Shown piece by piece: positions 4,114 through 62,193 of a stretch of DNA of 64,000 bases. Numbering within the stretch: the first letter of the stretch is position 1; every line of letters begins with the position of its first letter. The notes below the pieces were generated by a model. The model saw only the letters and a list, made by a program, of their open reading frames with translations, had not been told where the DNA came from and did no database searches. Source of the DNA: Candidatus Binatia bacterium (GTDB lineage: Bacteria; Desulfobacterota; Binatia; Bin18); assembly GCA_963667495.1 (NCBI GenBank), contig OY763426.1, positions 1,347,615 to 1,411,614 of the forward strand, in the 5' to 3' direction. The position numbers and the translations under genes were made by a program.

Positions 4114-4208
4114 GTGTGTCCAGTATGTAACACAAGGGGCCTTCACGGTGCAGCACGCCATTTCGGCTTTCGACCTACAACAGTCGCCAACACAAAAGGA
4201 GGACTCCC

Positions 4209-5351
4209 ATGACCACCGTTCAAGAGACGATTCCCGCCTCTCTTCAGCCCGATGTGGACGCCGCGCTGTCCTGGTTCAACCAACGCCAGGACATATCCTT
4301 TGAGGTGACGGGCATTCTCGACCCGGAGGACGCTCTTTCACAGAGCGAGCCCCGCGAGCTCAAGCTCGTACTCTGCGGGGGAGATCGGTGCGAGCAGCGC
4401 TCGTTCCGTGTGACGCGCAGCGCCGAAGGGGCTGCTGTTGCGTTCGCTGAAGAAGTCGCTGTAGCGGCTGGGCAGGACGTCCCGAGCCCCGAGCTTGATC
4501 CACCGCCGGGTGCCCGCCGCGGGTGGCTTGACCGTGCGCTCAGCCAGCATGCATTTGTCGTGCTCGTCTTCTACCGGGGATTCTGGTGACCACCGTGTCG
4601 CTCCGAGTTGCGGAGCTACACGAGTGCCGGGATCGCCGAGAAGGTGCGCGCCGCGGGTGGGGAGATCTATGCCGTCACGAGTGAGCCACAGACGCTGGCC
4701 TCTCGTGCGCAATCGGAGTGGGAGTTCGACTTCGAGTCGGTCGGCGACCCGCACCATGAGATCGCCGGAAGCTGCCGGGAGCGTGGCTGGATCGAGCTAT
4801 TCGTGAATGACAAGCTCGACTTTCTGCGCGAGGGCACGAAGGACGAGCCGGATTGGTCGGCCCAGCATCCGAAGGGTCACTTCCAAGCGGGCGTACTCGC
4901 CGTCACGGCGGAGGGGCGGATTCTGTACCGCTGGCGCAAAGTGCCCACGCGCAAGAACGTTGGCGGTGCGCTGGGGCGGCTGACTCCCGAGCACGCGTGG
5001 TCACAGATCGACGCCGCCCTTCAATCTGACGCTGACGGGGATGCCGCCCTCGACGAGGATGCGGCACTCGATTTCCCCGACGTTTTCTGGCCGATCTTCG
5101 CCGCCGTGCTAGTCGCAAACGGGTGGTTCGTACGGCCCCTCGCTTTCGGCTACAAGGCTCACGACCCCAAGGGGAAGCACCGCCTCCGGCGCGCGGGATT
5201 CCGGTTACTCGGCTTCGTCGCAGCCTGGGCCGCGGCGTTCTGGTGGGGCCCACCGCTCTGGGTGGGCGCGGCCCTCGTGGCCTGGTTCGCCTGGATCACG
5301 CCGAAGCTGCCATTTGTGAACGGCGAGTTTCAGCATATCAAGCCGGCTTAA
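4209..5351 (+). CDS. Redoxin / Prx-like thiol-disulfide oxidoreductase with an in-frame TGA (putative selenocysteine, UPPC motif) and a C-terminal hydrophobic region
   Basis: The track ORFs 4209..4589 and 4608..5351 are in the same frame and separated only by the TGA at 4587-4589. Read through, the sequence is AFVVLVFYRGFW-U-PPCRSELRSYTSAGIAEKVRAAGGEIYAVTSEPQ...FESVGDPHHEIA...VLAVTAEGRILYRW, which matches redoxin/AhpC-TSA family signatures (VLVFYRG.WCP.C, YAVS.D). The TGA occupies the first Cys of the CxxC motif. The native GC is high. Confidence 0.7.
4600..4616 (+). other. Candidate bacterial SECIS hairpin (GCUCCG-AGUUG-CGGAGC), 10 nt after the in-frame UGA
   Basis: The 6-bp stem is a perfect inverted repeat and the 5-nt apical loop contains GU. 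The spacing from the UGA matches bacterial SelB-dependent SECIS elements. Confidence 0.5.
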
Positions 5352-5383
5352 GAGCAACCCAATAGAAAAGAAGGAGAGACCCA

Positions 5384-6397
5384 ATGGACGTATTACGCGC
5401 CCCGGATGAACGATTCGCGAACCTGCCCGGCTACAGTTTCGAACCTCACTACACTGAGGTTTCCGACGGCGAAGGCGGCGAACTGCGACTTCACCACGTA
5501 GAGCAAGGACCTTCCTCGGGTGAGGTCGTACTCTGTTTGCACGGGCAGCCCACCTGGTCCTACTTGTACCGCAAGATGATCCCGGTCTTTGCCCAAGCGG
5601 GTTACCGCACCATTGCGCCAGACTTCGTCGGGTTCGGCCGCTCGGACAAGCCGACGCGAACCGAGGATTACACCTATGCAAGGCACGTCGAGTGGATGCG
5701 GCAATGGCTACAGACAAACCAACTGAATGATATCACGCTGGTGTGTCAAGATTGGGGAGGGCTGATCGGTCTACGCTTGGTGGCGACGCTCCCAGAGCAT
5801 TTCTCCCGGGTCGTCATCGCAAACACGGGCCTCCCGGAGGGCTCTGGTTTTCTAACCTCGTTCGATATTCGTCTAGCACCGAAGATGCATCGGGTGTACT
5901 CCTCGCTGCCCGTGCCCGCGAGCCTAAGCGAGGTCTTTGCGAAAATTCAAAACCCCGGAGAGGTGCCACCGTTTTTTTTCTGGCGAAAATTCGTGGCGCA
6001 AAGTCCTAATTTTCGTCCGCAGGATTTCGTTGAGATGGCTTCGAGCAGCGAACTCTCCGCCGATGTGCTCGCAGCATACGAAGCGCCTTTCCCCGACGAA
6101 CGTTTTCTAGCAGGAGCGAGGCGGTTCCCGAGTTTGGTGCCGATCACGCCCGACGAGCCGGAGGCCACGAGCAATCGAATGGCATGGAATGTATTGCAGA
6201 CGTTTGACAAGCCGTTCCTAACCGCGTTTAGCGACGGTGATATTGGATCCGCCGGCATGGAAAGAGAATTCCAGGAACGCGTTCCCGGTGCTAAGAAGCA
6301 GGCGCACATCACGATCAGAGACGCTGGCCACTTTCTTCAGGAGGACGCGGGGGAGCGGTTCGCTGAAGAGATCGTAAACTTCATGCGTACCAACTGA
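5384..6397 (+). CDS. Haloalkane dehalogenase (alpha/beta hydrolase fold)
   Basis: ERFANLPGYSFEPHY.EV...LRLHHVEQGP..GEVVLCLHGQPTWSYLYRKMIP...APDFVGFGRSDKP...DYTYARHVEWM...DITLVCQDWGG is the canonical haloalkane dehalogenase N-terminus with its nucleophile-elbow context. A GAAGGAGAG RBS lies upstream. Confidence 0.85.
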   Translation: MDVLRAPDERFANLPGYSFEPHYTEVSDGEGGELRLHHVEQGPSSGEVVLCLHGQPTWSYLYRKMIPVFAQAGYRTIAPDFVGFGRSDKPTRTEDYTYARHVEWMRQWLQTNQLNDITLVCQDWGGLIGLRLVATLPEHFSRVVIANTGLPEGSGFLTSFDIRLAPKMHRVYSSLPVPASLSEVFAKIQNPGEVPPFFFWRKFVAQSPNFRPQDFVEMASSSELSADVLAAYEAPFPDERFLAGARRFPSLVPITPDEPEATSNRMAWNVLQTFDKPFLTAFSDGDIGSAGMEREFQERVPGAKKQAHITIRDAGHFLQEDAGERFAEEIVNFMRTN

Positions 6398-6404
6398 CCG
6401 GAAG

Positions 6405-6428
6405 TCGCCGCGACGCGGCGATTTGCAG
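6405..6428 (+). terminator. Hairpin tcgccgcg-acg-cggcga followed by TTTG; weak intrinsic terminator after the dehalogenase gene
   Basis: A perfect 8-bp GC stem sits immediately 3' of the stop at 6397. The U-tract is short. Confidence 0.4.
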
Positions 6429-6452
6429 TATATGGACCAGTGGGCGGATTTG

Positions 6453-7271
6453 GTCACGGTCAGGAGGCGGATTACCCCGCCCCCTGCCGCTGCAAAACCG
6501 TACGTGAGACTTTGGTCTCATACGGCTTGTCAAACCGCTAGTCCCTGACACGGATACCAGACGCGGCATTCCGCAGTGTCTGGCTCGGGATATGAGCTTT
6601 GGGAGCTGGCCGACCCCTCTAGGAGGGCTGACCACGCCTCAGTATGCATCGCTGCATCTGCCATAGCGATAAAGCTCCTACTCGTTCCTATCCTTTCTAG
6701 CGACCTGTGCCCGCGTCAGCATATCTCGCGGCTTTCCCGCGAGCCTTGGCTTCTCGGACAATCCTGCCTCCGGTGAACATACGGCTGACTACCTACCCGC
6801 CCTCCTATTGGAGGGTGGGAGATCATCGAAGGTTATCCCGTTCCTGTTACCTGCTGGTGTGTGACCGTAGGATCGTGCTCTACGCCGGGTCTACTGCGAG
6901 CGGAGTCCCCAGCTCTGCGGTGCTGAGGACCTGAGACCAGTCCCTTTTGGGCCAGCCGCTAAGCCAGAGTCGGCTAGGTCGCAATCACGACGCCTCCATA
7001 CACGTTCGCTTGCGCTATCCCTAGTCACCTGGGTCGAGGGTCACCTGATCTGACTTCGGTGAGTGCCCCTTTGAACCCTTGCACTCCGACGGTTGAGGGT
7101 CAGTCGCGCGCCGTAGGGTTCTCCCGTCTCCCGTCCGCCACGGGGGGAGGACTTGCGAGAAGAGACAGTCTCTTCCGCTCACCTCCGCAGATAACAAGTT
7201 GTCAAAGAGCATGAAGCTCTCCGCCGCTCAGCCTCCCATCTCCCGATGGTTTCGAGCGAACGGGTCGCACC
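6453..7271 (-). mobile_element. ORF-less group II intron (ribozyme only, about 820 nt)
   Basis: On the minus strand a textbook domain V, AAGCCGUAUGAGAC-CAAA-GUCUCACGUACGGUUU, maps to plus coordinates 6496-6528. It has the AGC triad, a 2-nt AC bulge and a tetraloop. A GC-rich domain VI hairpin follows with a bulged A 7 nt before an ...GAC 3' end near 6453. The 5' end, GUGCGAC, is at 7271. No ORF longer than 63 aa lies inside, so no RT/maturase is encoded. Confidence 0.7.
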
Positions 7272-7647
7272 GCAAAAAGTTACGGTTTCAAGTGGACAGA
7301 GCGCCCATCTGAAGTCCCGATTTTGTGTCCGATAAGGCCGTTTCTGTCAAACTCCTCAGAAATATGAGCTCTCGGTGTGGTGCAACACTTTGCTAGTCAT
7401 CTGTTTACGGAGAAGAAAAAGATGACAGGGATGTGGACTTAAAGTGCGGAAAAGTGGGCTTTGGTGCCGAGAAGCCAAAACTAAAAATGAAACACAGACA
7501 GCCGGACTGTTTCACGGCCTTTTTTTCAGGCGAACACCCCGTCTTGTGGGCGATCGCCCTTGCGGCGGCGGGCGACATCCCCTGCTCAATATATCCGCGG
7601 CTTCGGCTATTGACTGATCGCGGCTCTATCGACGATCCTTGATTCCT

Positions 7648-8241
7648 TTAACAGCCCGGCTGTTCCGCTTCTGCCCGCATGTCCTGATGCGCGAATGAAA
7701 GCGGACACGGCTTGCCCACCCCGTCGAGCCCGACGGCGTAGACCAGCCGTCCGTAGCCAATAAAAATCGCCATACGCCAGCCCAGGGCCATGATCTCGGG
7801 CTCGCTGTAATGGGTCCGCAACTCGTCAAACAAATCCTGGGAGACCTGTTTATGATCGCGGGCCAGGGTGTCCGCAAAGCGCAGGGCAGCTTTCTCACGC
7901 GGTGTGAACAAATCGCTGTCCTGAAAATGGGGCAGGGCGTGGATCATTTCCTCCGTCAGACCTTGTTGCCTCGCCGAGGCATACACGGCCGTCATTCAAA
8001 GCTGGCATTCGTTGATCTGGGCCACCTTGTGCCGAATCAGCTCGGTCAGCTTCACGCTGATCCCATCGACGTCGACCATAATATGGGAGTAGTAAAAATC
8101 GACGAAGTGTTTATAGAGGTCCGGGGTATGGGCAAAGACCTGTATCCATTCCGACCCGCCGAGCGCCTCGTCGCTCTGCTGCATGGTTTTTTGCAGCTCG
8201 GGGTCAACCTTCTCAAACGGCACCTTGCTGACACGTAGCAT
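7648..8241 (-). CDS. AhpD-like / carboxymuconolactone decarboxylase family protein with an in-frame TGA (putative selenocysteine, C-x-x-U motif)
   Basis: The track ORFs 7996..8241 and 7648..7995 are contiguous and in the same frame, separated only by a TGA (plus coordinates 7996-7998). Read through, the sequence is ELIRHKVAQINECQL-U-MTAVYA..., which aligns with the CMD-family motif RVSQxNGCxYC in which the TGA replaces the second Cys. Downstream, TPREKAALRFADTLARDHKQVSQDLFDELRTHYSEPEIMALGWRMAIFIGYGRL is typical of AhpD-like proteins. Confidence 0.7.
7967..7981 (-). other. Candidate SECIS hairpin (UGCCUC-GGC-GAGGCA), 14 nt after the minus-strand UGA
   Basis: It is a perfect 6-bp inverted repeat on the minus-strand mRNA. 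The loop is short, so this call is less convincing than the redoxin SECIS. Confidence 0.35.
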
Positions 8242-10523: not shown

Positions 10524-10760
10524 ATGCAGTCTGCCTTACGTATCAAGACCACGGTGCTCCCAGGAGGAAAAATTGAAGTTGTTGATGAAACCCTCCAAGC
10601 AGGAGAGGCTGTAGACGTTATCGTTCTCCCCCAGCGAGCATCAACCGCTCGTCAATCGGCTGTCGATATTTTAGCCGGAGCACCAGGGCAACGTCTCTTT
10701 CACACGGCAGAAGAGGTCGATGCCTCCATCAAAAAAGAGCGCGACGCATGGGATCGTTGA
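10524..10760 (+). CDS. vapB: Type II antitoxin (VapB-like), partner of the downstream PIN toxin
   Basis: 78 aa. It overlaps the PIN-domain gene by 13 nt. Local GC is lower than the surroundings. Confidence 0.6.
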   Translation: MQSALRIKTTVLPGGKIEVVDETLQAGEAVDVIVLPQRASTARQSAVDILAGAPGQRLFHTAEEVDASIKKERDAWDR

Positions 10761-11188
10761 CTCTTCCCGCTATTGGTCCCATTTATCTTGATGCCAATGG
10801 ATTTATCTATAGCGTCGAGCGGATTGAACCGTACCGCACTGTACTCGAACCATTGTGGCAGCAAGCCCAAGCAGGACAGTTCCAAATCGTCAGCAGTGAA
10901 TTAACACTGCTCGAAACTCTTGTGAAGCCTTTCCAAAAGGAAGACGCATTACTCGAAAATATCTTTCGCTCCCTCTTTGTATCGCGTGAAGTGCAACTCA
11001 TTCCCGCTACGACAGCCATCTGGGAACAGGCTGCACGTCTTCGAGCCTCGCTCAACTTAAAGACTCCAGATGCACTACATGCCGCCTCTGCTCTTGCTGT
11101 TGGCAGCACTCTGCTTCTCACCAATGATCCGGACTTTCGTCAGATTCCAGACGTGCCGGTCACTGTTCTCGGCGACGTGGTCAGCTGA
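10748..11188 (+). CDS. vapC: PIN-domain ribonuclease toxin (VapC family)
   Basis: 146 aa. The fold pattern is PIN-like with conserved acidic residues (YLDANGFIY...TND). Confidence 0.7.
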   Translation: MGSLTLPAIGPIYLDANGFIYSVERIEPYRTVLEPLWQQAQAGQFQIVSSELTLLETLVKPFQKEDALLENIFRSLFVSREVQLIPATTAIWEQAARLRASLNLKTPDALHAASALAVGSTLLLTNDPDFRQIPDVPVTVLGDVVS

Positions 11189-15468: not shown

Positions 15469-15864
15469 ATGGCCAGATATCTGCTCGACTCGGTCATCGT
15501 CATCGACCACTTTAACGGCGTTGAGGCGGCGACGGAGTTTCTTGCCGCCCACGGGCGCGATTGCGTGATTTCCGTCATTACCCGCGCAGAGACGCTGGCT
15601 GGATTCCCTGCGGCATCGGAGTCCTTGGCCCGTGAGCTATTGGACACGTTTGCGACGCTGCCCGTCACCGTCGAAGTTGCCGATGCCGCCGCACGGTTGA
15701 GGCGCACCCAGCGCTGGAAACTTCCAGATGCGATTCAGGCGGCCATCGCCATTCAGGAAGGTCTGACATTGGTCACGCGAAACACCCGGGACTTCAAGGC
15801 CGGCGGCCCGGTCGCGGTAGAAACTCCGTATCGAATACCCAATCCGCTCATAAAGGAAGAATAA
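15469..15864 (+). CDS. vapC: PIN-domain toxin (VapC family)
   Basis: MARYLLDSVIVIDHFNG...LVTRNTRDF is a PIN fold. Confidence 0.7.
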   Translation: MARYLLDSVIVIDHFNGVEAATEFLAAHGRDCVISVITRAETLAGFPAASESLARELLDTFATLPVTVEVADAAARLRRTQRWKLPDAIQAAIAIQEGLTLVTRNTRDFKAGGPVAVETPYRIPNPLIKEE

Positions 15865-61140: not shown

Positions 61141-62193
61141 ATGGCAGAGGACAGAGATCGTGAACGAGCGTTGGACTTAGCGGTCAGTCAGATCGAAAAG
61201 CAGTTTGGCAAAGGCGCGATCATGAAGCTCGGCGAGGACGCTATAGGGCACAATATCCCCTCGATTTCGACCGGCTCGCTGGGTTTGGACCTCGCCCTTG
61301 GCATTGGCGGCCTGCCGCGCGGACGGGTGGTCGAAATCTACGGACCCGAATCATCCGGGAAAACCACGCTGGCCCTGCACGTCGTTGCTCAGGCGCAAAA
61401 AGCAGGTGGCTCATGCGCCTATATTGACGCGGAACACGCCCTGGACATGGGTTATGCCAAGAAACTTGGAGTCAATGTTGAAGAGCTATTGCTCTCTCAG
61501 CCCGACCATGGCGAGCAAGCGCTCGAAATCACGGATACGCTAGTCAGAAGCGGCGCGCTGGATGTTATTGTAGTTGACTCTGTTGCGGCTCTGGTTCCCC
61601 GCGCCGAACTCGAGGGCGATATGGGTGAGCCGCAGATGGGCCTGCAGGCCAGACTCATGTCGCAAGCGCTGCGGAAACTCGTCAGTACGATTTCACGTTC
61701 GCACACCTTGGTCGTCTTCATCAATCAAATTCGGATGAAGATCGGCGTCATGTTCGGCAGTCCCGAGACAACAACCGGCGGCAATGCCCTCAAATTCTAC
61801 GCTTCCGTCCGCATGGACATTCGCCGCACGGGCGCAGTTAAACAAGGCGATCAAGTGGTTGGGAATCACACCCGAGTCAAAGTGGTCAAAAATAAAGTCG
61901 CGCCGCCCTTCAAGCTGGCGGAATTCGATATTTTATACGGGACCGGGATCTCCAAAGAGGGCGAGCTGATCGACATCGGCGTGGACCAGAATATCGTTGA
62001 AAAGGCCGGAGCCTGGTACTCTTTTTCTGAAGATCGCATTGGCCAGGGCCGAGAGAACGCCAAGGCATATCTGCGAGAAAATCCCGAGATCGCAGCCATG
62101 ATAGAGCGCCAAGTCCGCGAGAAGTTCGGTCTCGGTACTCTTCAATCCACAGCGGAAGCGGGACCAGTGGAAGAGGTTGCTGAGAAAGCCTAG
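61141..62193 (+). CDS. recA: Recombinase RecA
   Basis: Walker A (GPESSGKTT), the L1 and L2 loops and the full-length conserved sequence are present. Confidence 0.97.

Follow-up and report, generated by a model that had tools for sequence, protein, structure and literature searches.

The stretch of DNA analysed here (64,000 nucleotides of contig OY763426.1, hereafter the window) holds, at positions 4209 to 5351 of its plus strand, a reading frame that is crossed by a single in-frame TGA. We are highly confident that this interval is one gene for a 380-residue Prx-like thiol:disulfide oxidoreductase selenoprotein of the published "Prx-like 1" family, in which UGA would specify selenocysteine (Sec, U). 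The gene and its parts are as follows.

4196..4202, plus strand: Shine-Dalgarno sequence AAGGAGG, 6 nt 5' of ATG 4209, found by inspection of the sequence
4209..5351, plus strand: single coding sequence of 380 codons for a predicted Prx-like (UxxC) selenoprotein, one frame with one internal TGA
4209..4493, plus strand: N-terminal alpha+beta domain, aa 1 to about 95, with near-invariant C56 and C61 in LxLCGxxxC
4587..4589, plus strand: UGA, predicted Sec residue 127 and first position of a UPPC motif, from the TGA/Cys comparison of loci and homologs
4600..4616, plus strand: core hairpin of a bacterial selenocysteine insertion sequence (bSECIS), GCUCCG-AGUUG-CGGAGC, in the codons for R-S-E-L-R-S, with a conserved and co-varying stem
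4591..4626, plus strand: extended lower stem around the core hairpin in the window sequence, from the minimum free energy (MFE) fold
5076..5306, plus strand: C-terminal hydrophobic region, aa ~290-366, from hydropathy and charge counts and from the helices in the model of a homolog (P0004)

The frame that opens at ATG 4209 runs into the TGA at 4587-4589 and then stays open to the TAA at 5349-5351. A first-pass annotation, made from the sequence alone, had joined two listed open reading frames (ORFs), 4209..4589 and 4608..5351, into one frame split only by this TGA. The sequence has exactly this layout: both ORFs share a frame, the TGA is their sole separator, and the second ORF begins merely at the first TTG past it. 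Read through, the peptide at the UGA is ...HAFVVLVFYRGFW-U-PPCRSELRSY..., with the motif FYRGFW-U-PPCR. The start at ATG 4209 is fixed because the N-terminus, M..V.ETIP, is conserved among homologs. Compared with L001, a 93%-identical relative, the N-terminal half (codons 1-126) has a ratio of nonsynonymous to synonymous substitution rates (dN/dS) of 0.09 and the C-terminal half (codons 128-380) one of 0.20; therefore, both halves are maintained as coding sequence by purifying selection. With Cys in place of U, the 380-aa protein scores 33.9 bits for the Pfam family AhpC-TSA (PF00578; gathering cut-off 26, E = 3.3e-8). This match takes in residues 115-187, crossing the UGA, and neither half alone gives any Pfam match. 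TGA is the stop of 12 of the 47 long ORFs in the window, which argues that the UGA codon has not been reassigned.

Homologs were sought among 5.8 billion proteins. Eight of the matches listed are full length (~390 aa), and all eight read FYRGFWCPPCR, so that the homologs carry Cys, and not a gap or a stop, at the U column, as the alignment proposed beforehand for checking the gene was expected to reveal. Most of the ~110 further matches listed are products of ~240-250 aa that cover only the last ~65% of the query, and the five of them that were aligned all begin within a few residues past the UGA position. The same split annotation therefore recurs throughout. The warning that gene callers would truncate or split the gene was thus well founded, as short post-UGA products dominate the homologs listed. 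In a scan of one genome per species, tblastn matching both halves in one frame gave 80 loci, with matches that cover residues 1-380 in 80 species; together with L001 and the window they form a set of 82 loci. PPCR is preceded by TGA in 81 of these and by TGT in one; neither TAA nor TAG occurs at this codon. The two halves are always contiguous in one frame in the 81 related loci (a single TGA lies between them in 80, TGT in one), and in none of the 81 were they found as separate genes, the arrangement that would have spoken against a joined gene. The hosts belong to Myxococcota, Halieaceae/OM60 (including the isolate HTCC2080), other Pseudomonadales, Acidimicrobiales, Thermoanaerobaculia, Bryobacterales and others; no literature linking HTCC2080 with selenoproteins was found. 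Six loci (L059 and L085-L089) are Cys forms, with TGT or TGC at the Sec codon. Conservation was counted over 87 family sequences, 81 Sec and six Cys: residue 127 is U in the former and Cys in the latter, C130 is kept in all 87, C56 in 85 and C61 in 84.

The claim that a perfect 6-bp hairpin with an AGUUG loop starts 10 nt past the UGA was also accurate. At 4600-4616 lies a 6-bp stem with the loop AGUUG (G at loop position 2), exactly 10 nt past the UGA, and this core folds at -9.2 kcal/mol by itself. The bSECIS model, as quoted in PMC13188914, specifies an upper stem of 4-16 bp, a loop of 3-9 nt with a G at one of its first two positions, a UGA-to-loop distance of 16-37 nt and an MFE of -7.5 kcal/mol or lower. 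The window hairpin conforms to every rule, with a 5-nt loop, a 6-bp stem, loop G2 followed by U, and its folding energy, in agreement with the bacterial SECIS geometry that had been claimed for it. The extended structure at 4591-4626 is an interrupted stem of 14 bp (-27.3 kcal/mol over 64 nt, z = -2.0). By itself the hairpin is weak evidence, because, throughout the window, 2.6% of TGA trinucleotides have a perfect 6-bp stem in bSECIS geometry after them. Its significance comes from the comparative data. The stem GCNNCG/CGNNGC and the loop AGUUR stand at the identical offset in 80 of 80 Sec forms, and 95.2% of the cells in their stem alignment are paired, compared with 33-50% in controls with the 3' arm shifted by 1-3 columns. 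The variable stem pairs 16-28 (UA/CG/UG/GC) and 17-27 (CG/UA/GC/AU/UG) have undergone 42 double changes, a level that none of 500 shuffles reached. All six pairs are intact in 57 of the 80 Sec forms. Between the window (GCUCCG/CGGAGC) and L001 (GCUUCG/CGAGGC) both arms differ and both pair. All six Cys forms have at least one stem mismatch and use other Arg and Glu codons.

Because the SECIS sits inside the coding sequence, the codons of R-x-E-L-R-x are frozen and the two x residues co-vary. Synonymous sites are fixed in Sec forms across phyla: Arg is CGC, Glu is GAG, and Leu is UUA or UUG, with no CUN. Within codons 131-136 (window 4599-4616), residues 132 and 136 co-vary as S/S, F/S, L/G, R/G, H/G and A/R. 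Arg135, the second Arg of the motif, never varies among Sec forms, whereas just one of the six Cys forms retains it; in the other five, ELR has mostly become ELL. We read this covariation, together with Arg135, as a signature that the RNA imposes on the protein. Altogether, the conservation of TGA in 81 of 82 loci, the Cys homologs and the conserved, co-varying hairpin uphold the first-pass proposal of a selenoprotein with a UPPC motif, and selenium is presumably incorporated at residue 127.

The lineage of the window can be read from its recA gene.

61141-62193, plus strand: RecA, protein 100% identical to that of GCA_002238415.1 (MPMI01000034.1)

The DNA around recA is 99.3-99.5% identical to GCA_002238415.1 and 99.8% identical to a closed metagenomic chromosome of 4.92 Mb (ENA ERZ24894576, ctg49703c). 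GCA_002238415.1 (MPMI01) is bin18 from the metagenome of the sponge Aplysina aerophoba, now placed in phylum Binatota, order Bin18, and its GC content is 57.8%, compared with 57.7% in the window. Since the RecA protein is identical to that of bin18, the window comes from a sponge symbiont of the bin18 lineage (Binatota, Bin18). Table S4 of Slaby et al. gives bin18 two SelA (COG1921) and one SelB (COG3276) (PMC5649159). Sec decoding is very likely in this organism, judging from this lineage and from a second gene in the window with a UGA/Cys correspondence, which argues for a working Sec trait.

7648..8241, minus strand: AhpD-like/CMD gene with the predicted motif C-Q-L-U (CxxU) on read-through, TGA at 7998-7996
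7990-7959, minus strand: hairpin downstream of the AhpD-like UGA, in bSECIS geometry

Its two ORFs, 8241..7996 (81 aa) and 7995..7648 (115 aa), share a frame with the TGA at 7998-7996 between them, and reading through gives ...VAQINECQL-U-MTAVYASAR.... With U replaced by Cys, the protein has a match to Pfam CMD/AhpD (PF02627, E = 5.8e-13) that extends over the stop; the gene surfaced through the Pfam match of its downstream half. Of 47 homologs, about 38 are short (roughly 108-135 aa) and span only the post-UGA part, and the five short ones that were aligned all start at a Met directly past the UGA. In five full-length homologs the motif reads N-x-C-x-x-C and places Cys at the U position. L001 retains the TGA. 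Like published AhpD-like selenoproteins, this one combines the CMD/AhpD domain and CxxU with Cys in full-length homologs, and it belongs to this known type. Third-position GC content and proximity to Cys, used as heuristics to look for further TGA-interrupted frames across the window, proved too noisy alone.

Several findings weigh against the assignment of the gene at 4209-5351 or against parts of the evidence for it. ARAGORN found no tRNA-Sec in the window, which takes in only 64 kb of the genome, or beside any of the related loci, and tblastn with E. coli SelA, SelB and SelD sequences as probes found no selA, selB or selD in the window or in the flanks of the 81 loci, the lone hit being a weak GTPase match in one locus (L016). 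SelD (COG0709) is counted as zero in bin18 (PMC5649159), which is weak evidence because bin18 is just 87% complete. At the RNA level, no SECIS family of Rfam matched the window at the gathering threshold or positions 4500-4720 at E <= 10, where only chance-level matches to rydB and sR51 appeared. The distance of 16 nt from UGA to loop is the lower limit of the published range, and a single internal G.G mismatch occurs in the stem of 23 of the 80 Sec forms. The extended lower stem of the window is conserved across the family at most partly and is probably a lineage-specific stabilisation. Finally, the structural model used below describes a Cys homolog with 49% identity (P0004) and not the window protein.

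Three alternatives have to be weighed against these findings. In the first, the gene is a selenoprotein gene by ancestry and the strain makes mostly a truncated product of 126 aa, for want of SelD or in a selenium-limited sponge host. UGA decoding is generally inefficient and dependent on selenium, and the zero count for COG0709 in bin18 also speaks for this scenario. However, that count comes from an incomplete genome; moreover, both halves and the hairpin are still constrained between the window and L001, down to a paired change in the stem, and a second Sec gene is maintained nearby. We regard this alternative as very unlikely. A second alternative takes the UGA to be read through as another residue, either by near-cognate Trp or Cys insertion or as a reassigned codon, with a hairpin that merely stimulates read-through. 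It would account for the lack of visible Sec machinery within the window and for the missing SelD annotation, but it has only a very slight probability in our judgement: homologs have the catalytic Cys of a CxxC motif at the aligned position, a classic Sec/Cys pair; the hairpin, with its loop G, fits the bSECIS model of the SelB type; this lineage has annotated SelA and SelB; the stops at other TGA codons in the window contradict reassignment; and the family stands in curated surveys of metagenome selenoproteins. The third, that the TGA is a true stop in a pseudogene or between two genes (one for an N-terminal protein of 126 aa, the other for a membrane protein of 247 aa from TTG 4608), draws on the split made by gene callers in every genome examined and on the normal use of TGA as a stop elsewhere in the window, but is effectively refuted by a TGA, never a TAA or TAG, that recurs at this codon in 81 of 82 loci from several phyla, by a Pfam redoxin match that requires both halves, by a break that interrupts the active-site motif at the residue for which full-length homologs have Cys, by dN/dS well under 1 on both sides and by a co-varying hairpin confined to the TGA forms.

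Under the selenoprotein assignment, the UGA at 4587-4589 would be decoded by SelB with Sec-tRNA(Sec), as in the canonical bacterial pathway, and SelB would be recruited by the in-frame SECIS hairpin at 4600-4616. The architecture of the product was examined with an AlphaFold (AF2) model of P0004, with a mean predicted local distance difference test score (pLDDT) of 85, and the exact N-terminal fragment of the window protein was also modelled. In P0004, residues 10-84 form an N-terminal helix and an antiparallel sheet, residues 109-273 a thioredoxin/peroxiredoxin fold, and residues 297-307, 325-349 and 352-377 the C-terminal helices. The top matches of this model in the PDB by Foldseek are PrxQ/BCP and AhpC proteins, at E ~4e-5, a target-normalised TM score of 0.62-0.67 and 11-18% identity. 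Both flanking regions of the first-pass description are present, namely a C-terminal hydrophobic region (aa ~290-366) and an N-terminal extension, which spans about 95-110 aa before the redoxin fold. The C-terminal region consists of a short hydrophobic helix, a K/R-rich loop (6 K+R) and a predicted helical hairpin joined by GPP. No signal-like or hydrophobic segment was found at the N-terminus, where hydropathy reaches a maximum of 0.45 in the first 60 residues. Because of this and of the K/R-rich loop before the last two helices, we infer a cytoplasmic enzyme tethered by its C-terminal helical hairpin, and these hydrophobic helices would most likely anchor it to the cytoplasmic face of the membrane.

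The first-pass annotation had put U at the first Cys of the redoxin CxxC motif. This holds for the full-length homologs, eight of eight of which have Cys there, but not for classical peroxiredoxins: in a hand alignment to their consensus, which we take to be FYPxDFTFVCPTE, U falls on the Thr of TxxC and Cys130 on the peroxidatic Cys. Given this register, itself drawn from a manual alignment, the active site is probably a thioredoxin-like UxxC centre of the dithiol type and not a lone peroxidatic Cys or Sec. Sec127 and Cys130 would then make up a redox centre at the N-terminal end of helix 1 in a peroxiredoxin-type fold, with Sec as the attacking nucleophile and Cys130 as the resolving partner, yielding a selenenylsulfide. 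The Cys pair of the N-terminal alpha+beta domain (C56, C61) may serve as a second redox or relay site.

The family has been published, and the window gene appears as a new, unannotated member of it in a Binatota sponge symbiont, not as a new kind of system. In 2005, Zhang, Fomenko and Gladyshev included a UXXC family named "Prx-like protein" among the selenoproteins of the Sargasso Sea (PMC1088965). Zhang and Gladyshev (2008) described "Prx-like 1" (pfam00578, UxxC) with 225 selenoproteins in the Global Ocean Sampling (GOS) data (PMC2398784), and the family is also called Prx-like thiol:disulfide oxidoreductase (PMC1794560, PMC13188914). A 2026 review counts it among the high-confidence predictions (PMC13188914). 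In GOS Dataset S1 of the 2008 study, FYRGFWUPPC occurs 19 times between the headers "#Prx-like 1" and "#Prx-like 2", and closely related YYRGLWUPPCR reads in this section share both the N-terminal domain (..LILCDGEIC..) and the C-terminal hydrophobic tail. The window gene shares with Prx-like 1 the pfam00578 domain, a UxxC motif (W-U-P-P-C) and not TxxU, and a bSECIS directly past the UGA. Nothing essential sets it apart; its host is a Bin18 sponge symbiont instead of ocean plankton. Prx-like 1 also includes short single-domain forms (FYRGHWUPYC, ~130 aa) (PMC2398784). A motif that resembles these, FFRAHW-U-PYC, was seen in a Myxococcota metagenome-assembled genome (JASMLK010000115.1, at L038:2392). 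It is the second redoxin motif with an in-frame TGA there, 8 kb upstream of the gene of the present family.

Sec-containing peroxiredoxins (TxxU) and PrxQ/BCP/AhpC proteins have the same fold, by Foldseek, and the same PF00578 domain. They differ in the residue at the Thr position, which is Sec here in the manual alignment to the consensus, and the identity to solved peroxiredoxins is only 11-18%. The same distinction between UxxC Prx-like and TxxU Prx proteins was drawn in PMC1088965. A classical peroxiredoxin (1-Cys/2-Cys, PrxQ) was rejected on this ground, as the PxxxTxxC pattern with its Thr is not found in that alignment and Sec stands in its place. TlpA/ResA/CcmG-type proteins have in common with the window protein the active-site string W-C-P-P-C-R-(S/E)-E (3kcm, 3or5, 3hdc) and tethering to the membrane, but theirs is by an N-terminal anchor or signal, in the periplasm, whereas the hydrophobic helices are C-terminal here. 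A TlpA/ResA-like periplasmic identity was also set aside, since the sequence matches in the PDB were non-significant (E 0.085-0.7) and no N-terminal hydrophobic segment exists. The NCBIfam model for SelL-related redox protein (NF040769) reached 20.8 bits against a curated cut-off of 120. It was the best of the NCBIfam models, none of which reached its own cut-off, and this is why genome annotation misses or splits the gene. There is no Pfam or NCBIfam model specific to the FYRGFWUPPCR family.

To our knowledge, the three-module architecture of the FYRGFWUPPCR subgroup has not been described or characterised separately. It invites a further reading, which we put forward as unlikely: the subgroup could be a membrane-tethered selenoenzyme with three modules (a cystatin/NTF2-like N-domain with its Cys pair, the UxxC Prx-fold domain and the C-terminal helical hairpin) that acts on lipophilic or membrane-embedded oxidants, as a functional analogue of GPx4 in bacteria. 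C56 and C61 would pass electrons on to the selenenylsulfide centre, and the oxidants might be lipid hydroperoxides or the like. Sec forms make up 81 of the 87 recovered orthologs, unlike in most Sec/Cys families, and this large majority suggests a reaction that Cys performs poorly.

The main consequence of these findings concerns annotation. The gene and its orthologs in the genomes of at least 80 species are split into two "hypothetical proteins", and the family lacks a Pfam or NCBIfam model although it has figured in published selenoprotein lists since 2005-2008. The subgroup is widespread, and its Sec forms predominate. It also offers an unusually clean case of an RNA element within a coding sequence that shapes the protein, with three codons frozen and two amino-acid positions co-varying, and for this reason the family is a good benchmark for selenoprotein finders. 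In addition, two genes within 64 kb document probable selenocysteine use in a Binatota sponge symbiont, in agreement with the enrichment of SelA and SelB reported for sponge symbionts.

The neighbourhood of the gene contains the following further features.

5384-6397: alpha/beta-hydrolase gene, downstream of the Prx-like gene and within a segment that L001 lacks
6453-6530, minus strand: group II intron match (Rfam RF00029, 52 bits, a 77-nt model of the catalytic domain)

Prx-like and AhpD-like selenoprotein genes have been reported to be co-located in metagenomes (PMC2398784, PMC13188914). In contrast to the reported pairs, those of the window are convergent and not co-oriented. They are 2.3 kb apart, separated by the hydrolase gene and the intron match, which is probably a fragment or a degenerate intron because no large intron-encoded ORF lies nearby. 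In L001 the two genes stand tail to tail with 150 bp between them (10745-10895), where ~2.2 kb of the window (5352-7640) is absent. The region of the Prx-like gene is thus locally variable, as DNA identity to the 4.92-Mb relative falls there, around and upstream of the gene, from ~99% to 77-90%. Upstream of the gene in the window are a TetR regulator and a GST-like gene. Beyond antisense shadow ORFs, no neighbour gene is conserved across the 82 loci, so the neighbourhood provides no operon clue to function; the commonest real neighbour family is a short-chain dehydrogenase, found in 17 of the 82. Farther along the window, an ORF at 15469-15864 (plus strand) matches a PIN-domain (VapC-like) gene annotated in L001, where a ribbon-helix-helix (RHH) antitoxin gene lies just upstream, and this pair fits the richness in toxin-antitoxin systems reported for sponge symbionts.

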